Shown: piece after piece, positions 16,751 to 51,912 of the stretch
Layout: the number at the start of each line of letters is the position of its first letter
Position numbering within the stretch: position 1 is the first letter of the stretch
Assembly (NCBI GenBank): GCA_965248455.1
Contig: OZ252105.1
Coordinates: 200,993 to 264,992, forward strand
Direction: 5' to 3'
DNA length: 64,000 bases
DNA from: Dehalococcoidia bacterium
GTDB lineage: Bacteria > Chloroflexota > Dehalococcoidia > Lucifugimonadales > Australimonadaceae
Translations under genes and position numbers: made by a program
Notes under the pieces: generated by a model
What the model saw: only the letters and a program-made list of their open reading frames with translations
Told to the model about the DNA's origin: nothing
Database searches by the model: none

Positions 16751-17176
16751 TCACGGCAATTCAAGGGCGACGCGCTCATTGACAGCGTCAAAGGTACACC
16801 GGAATTGGTTAAGGATGTCGCGGCCTAGCAGCGATGGCAGTTGCGCGTCTGTCTTGCCTGCAATGAGATCGATAGCAATCTCGATTTCACGGAAACCGCC
16901 AAGGGCAGCAGTATCGTGAAATCGGAGGATAGCCTCCGTCTTCTTGGACCGTGTCTCACCGCCCACGCCGTTCGCGGTCTGGTAGCGTCCCTTGACTGAT
17001 GACATCTGGATACCCATCCTGCCCACGTCATAGGGTAGTAGCGAAGTACCATCTGCTCCCGTGTCCACGAGGAATTCTATATCTGCGTGAAGTCTTAGAG
17101 CAGGAAGGTAGACCTGAGCTAGGATGTAAGGCGCAGGCGGGGTATCGTCGTGCTGGTAGTACCCGTGTATCGCCAC
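16751..17176 (-). CDS. retropepsin-like (clan AA) aspartic protease, single lobe, copy 1
   Basis: FLVDTGADGTSL catalytic DTGA and LLGRDILNQF. GTG start lies 1 nt after the upstream stop. Confidence 0.75.
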   Translation of the reverse strand: MAIHGYYQHDDTPPAPYILAQVYLPALRLHADIEFLVDTGADGTSLLPYDVGRMGIQMSSVKGRYQTANGVGGETRSKKTEAILRFHDTAALGGFREIEIAIDLIAGKTDAQLPSLLGRDILNQFRCTFDAVNERVALELP

Positions 17177-17177
17177 G

Positions 17178-17435
17178 TTACAGAATCAAGCGCCTCGGTT
17201 TCTTGGACGCGTATCTGAGGACGGCGTGGTTCTTGGGCACTCCCTTGTTATCCATCTCCTTCAAGACGCCTTTCAATGTCTTGTGGGTAGCCACAATCGT
17301 GCCCTTGTAGACTGCCACGTAGCTGTCAGGGTACTTCTTGCGCACCTGTGGCCAGATAGAGCTGAGATAGTCGCCGTCTTCACGGAACTGCGTGTGCGTC
17401 GCCAGATCAAAGCTCGGTATGCTCTCGGTAGTCAT
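17178..17435 (-). CDS. small partner protein (DUF5678-like), copy 1
   Basis: 85 aa. ...KKYPDSYVAVYKGTIVATHKTLKGVLKEM... AGGAG RBS. Homologous by eye to 48206-48502. Confidence 0.55.
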   Translation of the reverse strand: MTTESIPSFDLATHTQFREDGDYLSSIWPQVRKKYPDSYVAVYKGTIVATHKTLKGVLKEMDNKGVPKNHAVLRYASKKPRRLIL

Positions 17436-46080: not shown

Positions 46081-46482
46081 TCACTTAATCTCTTTTGTCT
46101 GTGTTCCTTGCTTCGATGCCTTCCACAAACCCAGGGCCTTACTGTCATAACCAAAGGCAAGCTCCCATAGTTCAATATTCCATGGATTCCGCCATCGAGC
46201 ATCCATGCACTCTTTACGCTGAAAATGCAGGTTGCCCCCCGTGGGACGACCAGTGAATACCGTAATAGGATGTTTGTTTCCAGTGAACAATATGCCGGTT
46301 ATTTCTACGATAATGCCGGTTTCTTCCTTGGTTTCACGATAGGCAGCATGGCGACTTCTTTCATGGTGGTCAACATGACCGCCTGGCAACGCCCACTTCC
46401 CCTTCCGTGACCCATATGCCCGCTGCACAAATAGAGTTTCCCCATGGTCGTTTCCGACCAAACAAGCCGCCACCCTCGTCAT
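46081..46482 (-). CDS. NUDIX hydrolase (copy 2, divergent from copy 1)
   Basis: Nudix box GGHVDHHERSRHAAYRETKEETGI. AAGGAG RBS before ATG 46482. Visibly AT-richer than its surroundings. Confidence 0.75.
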   Translation of the reverse strand: MTRVAACLVGNDHGETLFVQRAYGSRKGKWALPGGHVDHHERSRHAAYRETKEETGIIVEITGILFTGNKHPITVFTGRPTGGNLHFQRKECMDARWRNPWNIELWELAFGYDSKALGLWKASKQGTQTKEIK

Positions 46483-46635
46483 GGTATTATCTCCTTCTGC
46501 ACCTGCGCCCGTGCCGAACAATTTATCTTCATCGCCTAACCTCAAAGCCTCGCTCGATATCGAAGATGTCATAGAAGTCTTCCGCCAAGCGCTCTCTGTA
46601 GGCTTCCTCGGGGCGGGGAGCCGCCGCCTGCGCGC

Positions 46636-47745
46636 CTAGTCGCGTATGTCCTGGAGGAACCACTCGGTGGGGAGCTCGTGGCCGAGGCCCTGAGCCTTCG
46701 CCAGCTCGTAGGCGCGGCCTGCCACGGCGAAGAACTGCGCGCCCTGGATGTTCCCGCGCTCCGAGTAGGTTACCGCGCTGTTGCTCGGCCTGCCTTCCGC
46801 GCCCTCGATCATCTCTTGCAGGAAGACGACGCGGCCCTCCGCGACGATACCGTGGGCGCGGCTGACGCGCGACCGCGATTGGTTGCTGGACGCCGGGCGT
46901 CCGCCGGGCGCGTTGGCCTCGTAGGCGATGAACTCGTCGTGCAGCGCCATCTCCGGTATGCCGACAGGGGCGGGCGCGGAGCCGAGGCGCAACGAGCGGT
47001 CTATGCGCTCCATGGCCTCTCCATCTATGCGCCCGCCGACGCAGGTGATGTGCGCGCCGTCCTCGATGTCCTTGCCGAAGATGACCGGCTCCACGGAGTC
47101 GGTGCAGCCTGCGACGATGTGCGCTCCCTTGCACGCTTCGGCGGCGCTCGTGACAGGGATGACCTCGATGCCCAGCTTCTCCTGAATCTCAGCGGCGTAC
47201 GCTTCCCGGTTGGCCTTAGTGGGGCTGAACACCTGGATGCGCTTGATGTCGCGGACGGCGGCGAACGATTCGGCGTGCGAGCGCGCCATACCGCCTGAGC
47301 CGATCATCGCGACGACCGAGGCATCCTCGCGCGCCATGTACCCCGCGCCGATGCCGGAGTCCGCGCCGACGCGCATGTGCTGCAGAAAGCCGTCGTTCAT
47401 GATCGCCAGAGGTTCGCCGTTCTCGGTGCTCATCAGGAAGATGAGGCCGCAGAAGAGGCCGGGCTGCACGCAGTACTTCTCCTCCGTGCGTACGCCCTCG
47501 TACTCCTGTTCGTACACCACGTCGGACTTCATGCGAATGGCGAAGTAGCCGGATGCGGAGCCTCCCTCCATCGTGCCCCACTGGTACATCTTGTTCGGGT
47601 CGGACGTGGGGATGCGCAGATCGATGCGCGGCCTGCAGACCGCCTCAGTGCGCGCGAGCTCCTCATAGGCGCGCTTCAGCGAGTCGATGGTGTCCTGCAT
47701 CGTGAGGACGGCTGCGACGTTGTCGTTGTTCAGGATGAGCGTCAT
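46636..47745 (-). CDS. ornithine cyclodeaminase / mu-crystallin family protein
   Basis: MTLILNNDNVAAVLTMQDTIDSLKRAYEELA N-terminus and MIGSGGMARSH Rossmann motif. ATG 47745 overlaps the protease stop (ATGA). Confidence 0.8.
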   Translation of the reverse strand: MTLILNNDNVAAVLTMQDTIDSLKRAYEELARTEAVCRPRIDLRIPTSDPNKMYQWGTMEGGSASGYFAIRMKSDVVYEQEYEGVRTEEKYCVQPGLFCGLIFLMSTENGEPLAIMNDGFLQHMRVGADSGIGAGYMAREDASVVAMIGSGGMARSHAESFAAVRDIKRIQVFSPTKANREAYAAEIQEKLGIEVIPVTSAAEACKGAHIVAGCTDSVEPVIFGKDIEDGAHITCVGGRIDGEAMERIDRSLRLGSAPAPVGIPEMALHDEFIAYEANAPGGRPASSNQSRSRVSRAHGIVAEGRVVFLQEMIEGAEGRPSNSAVTYSERGNIQGAQFFAVAGRAYELAKAQGLGHELPTEWFLQDIRD

Positions 47746-48206
47746 GGGGTAGGCTCCTGTCGTGGGTAGGACTCGAAAGTAACGCGGCCGGTAACGCCGT
47801 TGTAAGTCATGGTGAAGCGCCGGAGAATGTCCCTGCCAATGATGGCATAGTAGGGCAGGCCCCCACTTGTCAGATGAACGCCTGCGAATTGGCCGTTGAT
47901 CGTGAAGTCGAAATGGGGGATATGAACCTGCGCTAGGTGCATGTTCATCGCGGCTGGGCCATGAATCCCAGTTATGACCTGGTGATCCACTACGGGAAGG
48001 CGCAGGTTGTCGGCAAGGCTTGTGTCGATGCAACTTTCTGAGGCGCCCGTATCGATGAGAGCGGGGAACTGGTCAGACCCAAGGTTAGGCTGGTTGCCGC
48101 TGTCAGGGTCGTAAGAAGTGTCAAGGCCAATTCGGACAGCCAGTGTTGGCCCTATGCTCACCAGCATGTCCGGCTGCCCGTCGAATCCGCAGTCGGCAAC
48201 TGGCAT
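47742..48206 (-). CDS. retropepsin-like aspartic protease, copy 2
   Basis: ALIDTGASESCI (DTGA) and IIGRDILRRF. The ATG overlaps the upstream stop by 1 nt. Confidence 0.7.
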   Translation of the reverse strand: MPVADCGFDGQPDMLVSIGPTLAVRIGLDTSYDPDSGNQPNLGSDQFPALIDTGASESCIDTSLADNLRLPVVDHQVITGIHGPAAMNMHLAQVHIPHFDFTINGQFAGVHLTSGGLPYYAIIGRDILRRFTMTYNGVTGRVTFESYPRQEPTP

Positions 48207-48502
48207 CAGTGAATCCCGAAAACGAGGGACGGAGGCAACTGCAACGGCCCTTTCCCTACTTTGCGAATGAGGTACGGCCCGCGACCGAAGCGGCGCATCG
48301 CCACCCGGGCCGCATCCTCAAATGCCGGATAGGTTCCGATGAGTTCCCCGTCACGCACGATGACCCACTCGCCGAAGTGGTCGGTTTCCAGCAAGTCCTG
48401 CATCCGCTCGTAGGCGGCAATCTCTTCACTCAACTTGGCCATGGCGTCCCCCGCCGGTTGTTCGCCAACCTCATGGGTAGATTGCTGCCTATTAGCGCGC
48501 AT
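48206..48502 (-). CDS. small partner protein (DUF5678-like), copy 2
   Basis: …DHFGEWVIVRDGELIGTYPAFEDAARVAMRRF… aligns with copy 1. Start is either 48502 (overlapping the Rieske stop) or ATG 48442. Confidence 0.5.
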   Translation of the reverse strand: MRANRQQSTHEVGEQPAGDAMAKLSEEIAAYERMQDLLETDHFGEWVIVRDGELIGTYPAFEDAARVAMRRFGRGPYLIRKVGKGPLQLPPSLVFGIH

Positions 48503-49785
48503 CAGCCTTTTGCTGCTGCAGCCTCGCGTCTGTCCAGGATGGGGCTGTACATCGTGGCGGCACCCTGGCGAGAGGACGTGTCCACGTAGTTGTGCTGCTC
48601 CGTCATGAACGGGATGTAGGCGTTCTGCTCAGCGTCTCGGTAGACCTCCATGGGGTCTCCGCCGTCCTCGACGATGCGGATGTTGTCCTCCAGCATCTGC
48701 CGGAACATGATGATGCCCTTGTCGGAGCGTCCCAGATGCTCGCCGGTGCGGTCCGCGATATCGCCCTGCGTGATCCACGCAGCGGGGTCTTGCGAGGAAT
48801 TGCTGCGCAATTCCGGGTAGACCGGCTGACCATTCACGTCCAGCATGGGAACGGGCGGGCGGTAGAAGGGAATCTCCTCCGCTGTCTGTTCCTCGTCGCC
48901 TGCGACCATCGGGTAGCACGCCACCCACCAGTGGCCGGTCGTGTAGTCGTCGATGGGGGTGCGAATCTGGAACGCGGGGCCCATCGAGAAGCTGCCCCGG
49001 TACGTGCCGTCGGTGATGTTGAAGCCGTCGCCGCCCTGGCGCAGGTAGTTCGGGAAGATGATGGGGTGCCCATCCTTCCATTCGGTGTCTTCCTCGGAGC
49101 CGCCTTCCCAGATACGGCGCTTGATGATGCCGTGCTCGAACGCGTCGAAGTGGATGACCTTGTGAGGGCGGCGCGTACGCCGATCCTCATCGCCGTTCAT
49201 CTCTCGGATGAAGTTTGCCCACGCGACGTGCAGCCATTCGAGGTGTACGGGGTCGAGCGAGTTCTCCTGGCACTGCAGCCAGTTGCACGACAGTTCAGCG
49301 TAGCCGATGTCGCGCAGGACGCCGGTTGCGGAGAAGACATCGTAGTTGGGGATGAGCGGCACGGGCGTGGGGCCCATGTAGGCGAACACCAACCCAGCCT
49401 TCACCTCCACCGGGTACGCCTTCATCTTGATCTTGTCCTTGAACCGCGCCTCCGGGTCCTCCGTCTCCTCGTACGGCTGCTCGATGCACTGCCCCGTCTC
49501 GTCGTACAGCCATCCGTGATACGGACAGCGCAGACCATGCTCCTCCGGTATGCCGTAGATCACGTTCATGCGCCGGTGAGCGCAGTGCGGCTCCATGAGG
49601 CCGAATGTGCCGGAGCGATCCTTGTACAGGATGAGATCCTCGCCCAGGAGGCGCACCTTCATCGTCCACTTGTCGTTCATCTGCGAAACGGCGGCGATGG
49701 GGTGCCAGTAGCGGCGCATCAGCTCGCCCATCGGCGTGCCGGGGCCGACTCGGGTATAGCGGTCGTTAGCTTCCTGTGTCAGCAT
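48502..49785 (-). CDS. Rieske oxygenase alpha subunit, paralog 4 (intermediate subfamily)
   Basis: CAHRR...CPYHGW and NSLDPVHLEWLH. AAGGAGAG RBS. Confidence 0.9.
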   Translation of the reverse strand: MLTQEANDRYTRVGPGTPMGELMRRYWHPIAAVSQMNDKWTMKVRLLGEDLILYKDRSGTFGLMEPHCAHRRMNVIYGIPEEHGLRCPYHGWLYDETGQCIEQPYEETEDPEARFKDKIKMKAYPVEVKAGLVFAYMGPTPVPLIPNYDVFSATGVLRDIGYAELSCNWLQCQENSLDPVHLEWLHVAWANFIREMNGDEDRRTRRPHKVIHFDAFEHGIIKRRIWEGGSEEDTEWKDGHPIIFPNYLRQGGDGFNITDGTYRGSFSMGPAFQIRTPIDDYTTGHWWVACYPMVAGDEEQTAEEIPFYRPPVPMLDVNGQPVYPELRSNSSQDPAAWITQGDIADRTGEHLGRSDKGIIMFRQMLEDNIRIVEDGGDPMEVYRDAEQNAYIPFMTEQHNYVDTSSRQGAATMYSPILDRREAAAAKG

Positions 49786-49852
49786 GAGAATTCTCTCCTT
49801 GTGCTGTGGTTACCGGATTCTGTGCGATTTGGCCAGAGTATAGCAGTCCTTC

Positions 49853-51130
49853 CTATGCTCCCTGTGCTGCCCCCGCGGTGCGGGGTATGCTGCGCAGGCC
49901 TTCCCAGCTTTCCAACGTCTCATCCACGAGCGAGGCGACTGTTGGCTCGCCGGCCTCGACGAGCGTGTAGCCGAAGCGGCGGCGATTGCCGAACTTCACG
50001 TGCTCCAGCGGCAGGTGGATGGCCTCGTTCGTCGCAGGGTCGCGGAACGTGTTCATGGGGTCGCCCCCGTCCGCGACGAGTTGCGCCTGCTCCTGAAGGA
50101 GCTTGCGGAAGAGGATGATGCCCTTGTCCGACTCACCAAGATGTTCGAGGTTGCGCTTGGCGACGGGGCCCTGCGTTATCCACGCGAGGTAATCCTGGTT
50201 GAAGAGGATGTCGCTGATGTAGCGCCCCTCGTCGTTCTTGAGCGGGATGTAGCGGTAGGGGACGACGTCCTGACGCGGCGCCTGCGACCCAGGTGCGGGC
50301 CGCCAGGCGTAATAGGAGACGTGGTAGGTGTGCGTGTCGTCCGCGGGCACACGGAACTGGAAGGTGGAGCGTACCTCGTCCCCGACGAGCAGGATGTTGG
50401 GGAACATGATGGGGTGCCCCTCTGACCAGTCGTCGTCTTCCTCCGTGTAGCCTGCCTCGACGCGGCGCTTGATGATGCCGTGCTCGAAGACGTCGAATCC
50501 GATCTTCAGATGCGTGCCTCGCAGTTCAGGCAGTGCGTGGACGCCGTTGCGCTGCACGTTGGTGTAGTAGGCGTGGAGCCACTCGTTGTGAACCGGGTCG
50601 AGCGAGTTCTCCTGGCACTGCAGCCAGTTGCACGGGAGCTCCGATATGCAGACCTCCCGCACGGCGTTGTCCCAGGTCAGCTGCTCCCAACGCGGCAGCA
50701 GCGGCGCAGGCTGCGGACCCATGTATGCGAAGACGAGGCCTCCCAATTCCTGCACCGGGTAGCCCGCGATCTTCACCTTCTCCTTGAAACGTCCGTCCGG
50801 GTGCACCGTCTCCTCGAACGGCTGCTCTATGCACTGGCCGGTCTCGTCCATCATCCAGCCGTGGTACATGCAGCGCAGGCCGTGCTCCTCCGGTATGCCG
50901 TAGGTGAGATCGACCCTGCGATGCGGGCAGGCGCGCTCGATGAGTCCGAGCGTACCGGACTTGTCGCGATAGAGAACGAGATCTTCGTTGAGCAGGCGCA
51001 CTGGCTTGGTGGGGCGCTCGTTGAGTTCAGCGGTAGCGGCGATGGGATGCCAGTAGCGGCGCATCAGTTCGCCCATAGGCGTACCCTGACCTACTTTCGT
51101 AAGGTCTTCGTTGGCTTTGACGCTAAGCAT
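49853..51130 (-). CDS. Rieske oxygenase alpha subunit, paralog 5 (subfamily B)
   Basis: CPHRR...CMYHGW and NSLDPVHNEWLH. GGGAG RBS. Confidence 0.9.
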   Translation of the reverse strand: MLSVKANEDLTKVGQGTPMGELMRRYWHPIAATAELNERPTKPVRLLNEDLVLYRDKSGTLGLIERACPHRRVDLTYGIPEEHGLRCMYHGWMMDETGQCIEQPFEETVHPDGRFKEKVKIAGYPVQELGGLVFAYMGPQPAPLLPRWEQLTWDNAVREVCISELPCNWLQCQENSLDPVHNEWLHAYYTNVQRNGVHALPELRGTHLKIGFDVFEHGIIKRRVEAGYTEEDDDWSEGHPIMFPNILLVGDEVRSTFQFRVPADDTHTYHVSYYAWRPAPGSQAPRQDVVPYRYIPLKNDEGRYISDILFNQDYLAWITQGPVAKRNLEHLGESDKGIILFRKLLQEQAQLVADGGDPMNTFRDPATNEAIHLPLEHVKFGNRRRFGYTLVEAGEPTVASLVDETLESWEGLRSIPRTAGAAQGA

Positions 51131-51262: not shown

Positions 51263-51586
51263 TTAGTGGGCAGGCGCGTAGAGGGAGAGCTTCTCTTCAT
51301 CCAGGAGCTTGGCACGGCGCTCGACCCCCTCGACGGGGGATTGATCCCGCCAGAGTTGCCATCGCACTTCTAGGTTGAGCCAGACCTCGGCGCTCGTCCC
51401 GAAGGCGGCCCCTAGTTCTCTGGCTGTCTGGCTGGTGATTGCCCGCTTGCCATTGATCAGTTCGCTGACCTTCGGTTCGCTTCTGCCTAGAACCTTGGCG
51501 AGGTCGCGCTGAGTCCAGCCGCGTGCCTCGATCTCATCCTTGATGTACGCACCGGGAGGATATGCTTCCGCAACTGTCCGTTCCAT
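51263..51586 (-). CDS. higA: type II antitoxin HigA (XRE HTH)
   Basis: PGAYIKDEIEARGWTQRDLAKVLGRSEPKVSELINGKRAIT. Confidence 0.8.
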   Translation of the reverse strand: MERTVAEAYPPGAYIKDEIEARGWTQRDLAKVLGRSEPKVSELINGKRAITSQTARELGAAFGTSAEVWLNLEVRWQLWRDQSPVEGVERRAKLLDEEKLSLYAPAH

Positions 51587-51615
51587 GTCCTCGCCCTCGC
51601 GGCCTTGCGCCGGAT

Positions 51616-51912
51616 TCAGTGGTAATCGGTGACCTCTACCAAAACAACTCTGGAGCGTCCACCCGCCTTTTCAAGTTCGATGATGAGCCTGTATTGATCG
51701 TTCAGGCGCATCGAGTGCTGGTGGCTGCGGTTGCCGCGAAGCTTCTCGAAACGCAACGACCGCATCTGCCGCAGATCCCGCTCGTCCTGGGCCGCCCGAA
51801 TCCAGCCGATGACCTTGCGGTAACTCTTGACCACGCCAACGGGCAACCCCGCGTCAACCCCAGGGTCAGTCTCCAAGCGATCCAGTTCTTCATCCGCGAA
51901 CTCGATATCCAC
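51616..51912 (-). CDS. higB: type II toxin HigB / RelE-ParE superfamily
   Basis: …SLRFEKLRGNRSHQHSMRLNDQYRLI… killer-protein motif. Lies upstream of higA, the usual HigBA order. Confidence 0.8.
   Translation of the reverse strand: MDIEFADEELDRLETDPGVDAGLPVGVVKSYRKVIGWIRAAQDERDLRQMRSLRFEKLRGNRSHQHSMRLNDQYRLIIELEKAGGRSRVVLVEVTDYH

Follow-up and report, generated by a model that had tools for sequence, protein, structure and literature searches.

A probable passenger module of a small DUF5678-like gene and a retropepsin-like protease gene in a Rieske–OCD gene array of Dehalococcoidia

The 64,000-nucleotide window analysed here (contig OZ252105.1, positions 200,993 to 264,992) comes from the genome of a Dehalococcoidia bacterium, G000, and carries a small gene and a gene for a retropepsin-like aspartic protease between a Rieske oxygenase gene and an OCD/mu-crystallin gene. 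Read directly from the sequence, the minus-strand order is Rieske 5, Rieske 4, small open reading frame (ORF), protease and OCD, with 67 nt (49786–49852) between the two Rieske genes; all coordinates are window positions. A preliminary description had given this order and the family names Rieske, retropepsin-like protease and OCD/mu-crystallin. The sequence bears out the former and Pfam matches the latter, OCD_Mu_crystall being the family that matches the last gene of the locus. We propose that the small gene and the protease gene probably form an autonomous mobile module, carried as a passenger in the Rieske 4–OCD spacer and without a working role in the pathway. The preliminary description had listed overlapping codons at three junctions and offered two readings of them, a regulatory or maturation role of the pair or a very precise cassette insertion. 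Two of the overlaps are real and the third is not. The insertion is supported by relatives free of the pair, by other cargo at the same site and by autonomous copies in many phyla, but the regulatory or maturation role is not. The main result is a correction: the pair would be passenger DNA and would not represent a concealed step of maturation or regulation in the Rieske–OCD pathway, and annotators of paralogue-rich Dehalococcoidia genomes should attach no significance for the pathway to it.

The Rieske 4–OCD spacer in related genomes

Nineteen genomes of the genus, G000 among them, conserve the Rieske 4–OCD gene pair, and the OCD orthologues of the 18 others have 84–87% identity. Wherever a relative has the locus, a Rieske 4 orthologue (88–93% identity) immediately precedes OCD, and Rieske 5 orthologues (83–90% identity) lie upstream of Rieske 4 in most relatives. 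Comparison of about 11 kb in 12 of the 18 other genomes showed that the order Rieske 6 – Rieske 5 – Rieske 4 – OCD – bicupin – EutA-like ATPase is conserved, at 83–93% identity. In 13 genomes of the genus (14 loci) the Rieske 4–OCD spacer measures only 5–345 nt and lacks the pair, and the two flanking proteins retain 84–93% identity. The unit is also kept in family-level outgroups, and the spacer is empty in the outgroups G022, G023 and G027. The pair itself is present in four genomes of the genus (G000, G021, G004 and G008), as very divergent alleles, and between Rieske and OCD genes on two metagenome contigs (P0002 and P0003); G004 has two copies of the small gene. Other genomes carry different cargo at the same place. 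The spacer of G010 holds a gene with an HsdR_N (HSDR_N) domain, that of G033, from another genus, an unrelated 91-aa ORF, and that of G002 the small gene followed by a DNA methylase gene (PF01555) and a PD-(D/E)xK-like ORF, a putative nuclease. The pair is therefore not co-conserved with Rieske 4 and OCD, being absent from 13 of the 19 genomes and from three outgroups and replaced by other cargo in two. In the comparison with pair-free orthologous operons that the preliminary description had proposed, Rieske 4 and OCD thus remain adjacent and conserved without the pair.

The replacement in G002 (locus L033) can be followed in detail. The P0003 contig (locus L057), which has an intact pair, is separated from G002 by 0.016 substitutions per site on the tree of the flanks. 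When the two are aligned, homology stops 9 nt into the protease gene and resumes at the protease stop codon. A 435-nt protease body (codon 4 to stop) has been exchanged for a 1249-nt restriction-modification unit, with the flanks unchanged. The methylase frame opens at the TGATG of the protease and begins with the same residues (MPT). The methylase–nuclease unit is also found in two other families of the order, without a DUF5678 gene, and so represents a mobile unit in its own right, which landed in the G002 spacer. The site as a whole thus offers a natural series of states: empty, occupied by the pair, with a duplicated small gene, with the protease swapped for restriction-modification genes, and with other cargo.

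These states weigh directly on the proposal of a regulatory or maturation role. The pair would then be an accessory of the Rieske–OCD pathway, the protease maturing or turning over the enzymes, the small protein tuning it, and the codon overlaps being selected for stoichiometry. Such a role would suit the tight packing of the genes on one strand, the retention of the pair at the exact site in four genomes and two metagenome contigs, the purifying selection on both genes described below, and the Rieske gene that adjoins another pair of the window, copy A. It is hard to reconcile with the loci of 13 genomes and three outgroups that keep Rieske 4 and OCD without the pair, with the swap in G002, and with a Rieske 4 C-terminus that is the same with or without the pair. 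Moreover, no Rieske or OCD gene adjoins any of the 48 pairs studied at other loci, and the overlap of protease and OCD is absent from G004, G008 and the P0002 contig. We regard a pathway role as highly improbable.

In genomes of the pair-free crown clade the empty spacer is typically about 140 nt long and has a conserved GC hairpin immediately after the Rieske 4 stop codon, the sequence TATGAT, a second hairpin and GGAGG before OCD. OCD may have its own promoter in the genomes with this spacer. The crown-clade GC hairpin sequence occurs nowhere in G000.

The two proteins and their distribution

Sequence and structure prediction agree on the nature of the protease. Residues D52-T53-G54-A55 are invariant in 25 homologues, as are G124 and R125 of its IGRD motif. 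It scores above the cut-offs of Asp_protease_2 (28.5 bits against 24.3) and RVP (27.9 bits against 20.7) and below that of the NCBIfam family TIGR03698, clan_AA_DTGF (23.4 bits against 57.35). The AlphaFold2 (AF2) model has a predicted local distance difference test score (pLDDT) of 89, falling below 50 for residues 150–154. Foldseek matched it, with probability 1.0 in every case, to the proteases of EIAV, FIV and SFV and to DDI1 and APRc. By inspection, neither a signal peptide nor a membrane segment is present. We therefore describe it as a predicted cytoplasmic, single-lobe retropepsin-like aspartic protease of clan AA (DTGA), which by analogy presumably acts as a homodimer.

The small protein appears to be a divergent member of the DUF5678 family. 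Its own match to Pfam DUF5678 (PF18929) is below the gathering score (13.1 bits, E 0.088, against 23.2); 25 of 42 close homologues match the family at E values up to 0.1 (best 3.5e-5), and the small protein of copy A scores 27.3 bits. Homologues in alignment A2 share the invariant motif FGRGPYLIR.VG..P..LP. Its AF2 model (pLDDT 81) consists of a helix, a hairpin, a helix and a strand, followed by a floppy tail. A full-text literature search found no paper studying DUF5678 and none linking retropepsin-like proteases with toxin-antitoxin systems.

Support for a module comes from its occurrence elsewhere. A wider scan, limited to one genome per species, gave 39 loci in at least ten phyla, among them Thermodesulfobacteriota, Latescibacterota, Acidobacteriota, Verrucomicrobiota and Chloroflexota, with others in Alpha- and Gammaproteobacteria. 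The small gene lies directly upstream of the protease gene in 37 of these loci, the exceptions being a contig end and a fragment, and no Rieske, OCD, bicupin or EutA-like ATPase gene lies within 3 kb in any of the 39. Similarly, all nine further loci of the same genus and order have a small-gene homologue directly ahead of a protease homologue, and Rieske and OCD genes are absent within 4 kb of every one. A serine recombinase or transposase is a flanking gene in four of ten sampled loci. Copies in other phyla are no more distant than congeneric ones: a Thermodesulfobacteriota protease is 54% identical to that of G000, and the same-site copy in the congeneric G021 is 51% identical. The G+C content at third codon positions (GC3) of the pair (0.66–0.75) is lower than that of the backbone genes (0.83–0.89) and near that of the HigBA pair of the same array (0.69–0.73). 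Taken together, these data argue that the pair is an autonomous, horizontally spread two-gene module, belonging to a DUF5678–retropepsin family that is widespread and functionally uncharacterised. In two loci of Candidatus Dadabacteria (L059 and L060) the pair adjoins ThiF, BubE and helix-turn-helix genes.

The two genes are not lost equally. No complete protease locus without the small gene was seen among these loci, and the small gene survives without a complete protease in G002, where the protease was replaced, and at locus L062, where it is truncated. Gene calls had suggested L062 and L063 as small genes without a protease; L063 has an intact protease that was not called, and L062 the truncated one.

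The G000 genome holds three such pairs: the one studied here, copy A and one outside the window. Copy A is only distant kin, and tblastn with the studied pair (copy B) did not recover it at 1e-3. In the third pair (C1:127936–128740) the partner protein has 146 aa; its N-terminal part includes a weak GIY-YIG-like stretch (E 0.16), and its C-terminal half resembles the small partner proteins by eye.

History of the insertion and the gene junctions

On a DNA tree of Rieske 4 and OCD the pair occurs in four deep lineages, namely G000, P0002 (whose sister G033 lacks it), a clade of G004, G008, G002 and P0003, and G021. The same tree unites 15 loci that lack the pair in a well-supported crown clade; the outgroups are empty, the deep branching order is poorly supported, and parsimony requires a minimum of three state changes. 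Because the pair is found in four deep lineages, we take the insertion to be old rather than recent. An ancestor of this Dehalococcoidia lineage would have acquired the module in a short Rieske 4–OCD spacer, where it would have stayed as passenger DNA without functioning in the pathway. A recent insertion with its own promoter, which the preliminary description had named as an outcome that would overturn its reading, is not what we find, the insertion being old and the protease–OCD junction leaving no room for a promoter. Both genes have dN/dS values (nonsynonymous over synonymous divergence) of 0.1–0.4, and both are therefore taken to be functional.

The module may instead have entered the spacer several times, or by repeated import, rather than once in the ancestor. 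Protease identity between genomes is 49–62% where the flanks are 86–96% identical. On the protease tree G000, G008, P0002 and P0003 form one supported clade, with G004 and G021 outside it. The small protein of G000 is 76–78% identical to those of G004 and G008 and 53% identical to that of G021, the opposite of the pattern in the flanks. The synonymous divergence (dS) of the protease is 3–5 times that of the flanks, a ratio that is suggestive only, as the values are saturated and codon bias is stronger in the backbone; for the same reasons, dating the cassette by dS against the flanks was set aside. Against repeated entry, an approximately unbiased (AU) test gave no grounds for rejecting a single clade that unites every protease located between Rieske 4 and OCD (p 0.295), the number of changes on the flank tree is as low as three, and every copy sits at one and the same place, between the Rieske 4 hairpin and the ribosome-binding site (RBS) of OCD. 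We consider repeated entry possible but rather unlikely; a single insertion would have been followed by rapid divergence of the pair and by losses. No divergence gradient that would mark import was found in the flanks next to the cassette. Candidate insertion scars were also rejected: flanking direct repeats were imperfect, of 10–19 nt and at chance level, and a CTACCCA(C/T)GA repeat, found in the spacer before the small gene and just before the OCD RBS, is not present in relatives.

The three junctions would have three different origins, of which the first belongs to the module. The TGATG that joins the small gene to the protease gene, present as the preliminary description had it, recurs in G021, G004, G008, G005 and G019, in copies at this site and elsewhere. 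On the P0002 and P0003 contigs the called genes overlap by 1 nt, and in other copies the two genes do so by 8 nt (L052) or 14 nt. This junction thus appears intrinsic to the module and would travel with it.

The second overlap, the ATGA of protease and OCD, is likewise real, but would be accidental. Lacking an earlier stop codon, the protease frame of G000 and G021 reads through the OCD RBS to the TGA of ATGAC; in G000 the RBS lies within the last six codons of the protease. The AGGAG before OCD is conserved in all pair-bearing loci, and empty loci have the related GGAGG. The protease of G004 and G008 ends with TAA just before AGGAG, 12–16 nt from the OCD start, and on the P0002 contig a gap of 98 nt separates the protease stop from OCD. 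Because the protease stop lies 12–98 nt before OCD in these other lineages, the ATGA can be explained as a by-product of the OCD start. The restriction gene of G002 likewise ends in the ATGA of OCD. The overlap therefore looks like a local accident of the OCD start context and not a conserved design. The protease of this lineage would have lost its own stop codon and now read about five residues through the OCD RBS; the AF2 model predicts disorder for the five residues at the C-terminus of the G000 enzyme.

The third overlap does not couple any genes. A TGATG exists at 48500–48504, and the preliminary description had considered it as a possible Rieske 4/small-gene junction, with a start at 48442 as the alternative. 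It is the alternative that holds. Translation from the ATG at 48442 (MAKLSEEIAAYE...), which is preceded by GGGGGA at 48447–48452, gives a 78-aa protein. All five syntenic orthologues start with MAKLSEEIAAYE or MDQLDREIAAYE at the aligned ATG, each after a purine-rich RBS, all 41 homologues in alignment A2 start at the matching position, and separate gene calls on the two metagenome contigs also give 78 residues. A 98-aa reading of the small gene from the TGATG finds no support in these starts, and its 20 extra codons have no counterpart in any relative. Since the small gene starts at 48442, it is 59 nt from Rieske 4 and is not coupled to it by an overlap.

A hairpin that encloses the RBS and AUG of the small gene is predicted to form from the 59-nt spacer together with the gene's first codons (−44.3 kcal/mol, z −3.2). 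This structure is significant in G000 but is not conserved in relatives, and it was set aside. Within 48395–48505 of the minus strand, the spacer after Rieske 4 holds an inverted copy of codons 7–12 of the small gene. The base of the hairpin falls at the Rieske 4 stop codon, and terminating ribosomes could open the predicted structure.

The pair is most likely transcribed together with Rieske 4 and OCD, because the small gene is preceded by a spacer shorter than 60 nt and there is no space downstream of the protease; room for a promoter of its own would exist only inside Rieske 4. A scan of 42.9–54.2 kb gave no sigma-70-like promoter and no minus-strand terminator, a result that is uninformative for a Chloroflexota genome, and an Rfam search of the same region found nothing.

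Relation to known systems and neighbouring features

The pair shares most with type II toxin-antitoxin systems such as the HigBA pair of the same array. Both consist of two genes, the smaller first, joined by a stop/start overlap and present in several copies per genome; both have a patchy horizontal distribution and a GC3 below that of the backbone, sit in spacers of the same array, and can lose the downstream gene while the upstream gene stays. Co-oriented coupled genes are found as a unit in 37 of 39 and nine of nine loci, and patchy, multi-copy, horizontal occurrence is seen in the three pairs of the genome and in presence or absence at this and other sites. The systems differ in that an aspartic protease, rather than a nuclease, a kinase or another of the described classes of toxin, is encoded downstream. 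Moreover, the upstream protein is better conserved than its partner and, unlike a DNA-binding autoregulating antitoxin, has no recognisable DNA-binding domain and no PDB fold match, and its gene has room for a promoter of its own only inside Rieske 4. The preliminary description had found embedding in an operon unexpected for a toxin-antitoxin element. This is a weak premise, as HigBA and a Phd-type remnant also sit in spacers of this array within the window. The insertion itself is ordinary for such a cassette-rich genome.

By analogy with these systems, the small protein could neutralise a potentially harmful protease dimer. It would bind the dimer and hold it inactive, as in a toxin-antitoxin or abortive-defence pair, and the freed protease would cut cellular or phage proteins. 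A protease effector would be an unusual toxin or defence executor.

Several points weigh against the reading of the pair as a mobile passenger of this kind. Toxicity, binding and cleavage are all inferred, and the co-transcription follows from gene spacing alone. The AF2 fold of the small protein had no match in the PDB, and no DNA-binding family in Pfam or NCBIfam matched its sequence. Conservation is much stronger in the small protein than in the protease (60–80% against 45–60% identity); the usual pattern of antitoxin and toxin is the reverse. The PADLOC match of the studied protease is negligible (E 0.029). The persistence of the pair at a single site in four deep lineages, with purifying selection acting on it, would fit domestication too, and the AU result above belongs on this side of the balance as well. 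We nevertheless hold the passenger reading to be the probable one.

Known proteases and families provide partial parallels. APRc of Rickettsia conorii (PDB 5c9b) and the RVP domain of DDI1 (PDB 3s8i) share the single clan-AA lobe, the DTG(A) motif and the G-R-D/N motif, at only 13–18% sequence identity. The studied protease differs from them in having neither a membrane anchor nor a ubiquitin-like domain, and in always being paired with a DUF5678 gene. The best curated families for the two proteins are TIGR03698, Asp_protease_2 and DUF5678, with scores below the cut-offs for TIGR03698 and DUF5678, both of which are functionally uncharacterised. The nearest defence candidate is PDC-M08 of PADLOC-DB, which also has two proteins, its B component being an aspartic-protease-like model that copy A matches at E 2.6e-5. 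The studied pair differs in that only its protease gives a match, that of E 0.029 to PDC-M08B; the small protein has none, so that the two proteins do not match PDC-M08 together.

A further possibility, which these weak matches to PDC-M08 would fit, is that the module is an anti-phage abortive-infection system and not a classical addiction-type toxin-antitoxin pair, and the spacer a small defence hotspot, whose defence cargo would be exchanged through recombination in the flanks or in the small gene, both of them conserved. The restriction-modification unit of G002 and the HsdR_N gene of G010 would fit such a site, and so would the proteases of G004 and G008, which are only 53% identical although the flanks of these genomes are 95–96% identical. 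The second small-gene copy in G004 is as expected after recombination within that gene, and mobile-element genes adjoin copies in other phyla. For the studied copy, however, the PADLOC matches are far from significant, PDC-M08 does not appear in the main text of the PADLOC preprint, and the flanks lack the divergence gradient that marks imported DNA. A defence hotspot is thus conceivable, if doubtful, and it overlaps with the passenger reading without excluding it.

On a broader and decidedly more speculative view, which we think improbable at present, the DUF5678 gene and its stop/start junction would be the stable, highly conserved core of an undescribed conflict-system family with an exchangeable effector behind it. 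The effector would usually be a retropepsin-like protease restrained by the small protein, and could be swapped precisely at the level of the ORF for defence cargo, as in G002. If lodged in an operon, a module of this kind would also couple its expression to a catabolic pathway. Whichever way the module works, the locus establishes where the small gene truly starts and shows a protease that can be lost with the small gene kept, the reverse never being seen. These results and the states of the site are the first constraints on how a DUF5678–retropepsin module might work.

Table 1. Features of the Rieske–OCD array and related pairs in the window
Feature	Position	Strand	Basis and remarks
Rieske 5, Rieske/LigXa_C oxygenase alpha subunit	49853–51130	−	Pfam; conserved backbone
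Rieske 4, Rieske/LigXa_C oxygenase	48502–49785	−	Pfam; conserved partner of the OCD gene
Spacer from Rieske 4 stop to small-gene start	48443–48501	−	59 nt; holds the GGGGGA RBS
Small partner gene	48206–48442	−	Alignment, Pfam; 78 aa, divergent DUF5678 member
TGATG stop/start overlap, small gene/protease	48204–48208	−	Sequence
Retropepsin-like aspartic protease	47742–48206	−	Pfam, AF2, Foldseek; single domain, 154 aa
OCD RBS AGGAG (47754–47758) and ATGA overlap (47742–47745)	47742–47758	−	Inside the last six codons of the protease
OCD/mu-crystallin family enzyme	46636–47745	−	Pfam and NCBIfam; conserved backbone
NUDIX gene	46081–46572	−	Pfam; GC3 0.49 against about 0.85 in neighbours
HigBA pair	51263–51912		In the same gene array
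Copy A, other DUF5678 and retropepsin pair	16751–17435	−	Only distant kin of the studied pair

The surrounding genome has 2.8 Mb, 63% G+C and more than 50 Rieske paralogues. Expansions of Rieske-type paralogues have been described for SAR202 (PMC6946804), a group cited here for comparison. Beyond the studied spacer, a NUDIX gene lies between OCD and the bicupin gene in G000 only and is absent from this position in all relatives examined. It is a separate insertion specific to G000 and no partner of the protease pair. The Rieske 5–Rieske 4 spacer, with its mere 67 nt in G000, holds a variable ORF of 74–110 aa in many relatives (L021 3147–3578, L029, L028), mostly with an acidic N-terminus and one C-terminal hydrophobic segment. 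Finally, the OCD–bicupin spacer of G021 (L022) contains a 3.4-kb insertion with a 479-aa ORF that has no Pfam match, further evidence that every spacer of the array varies.

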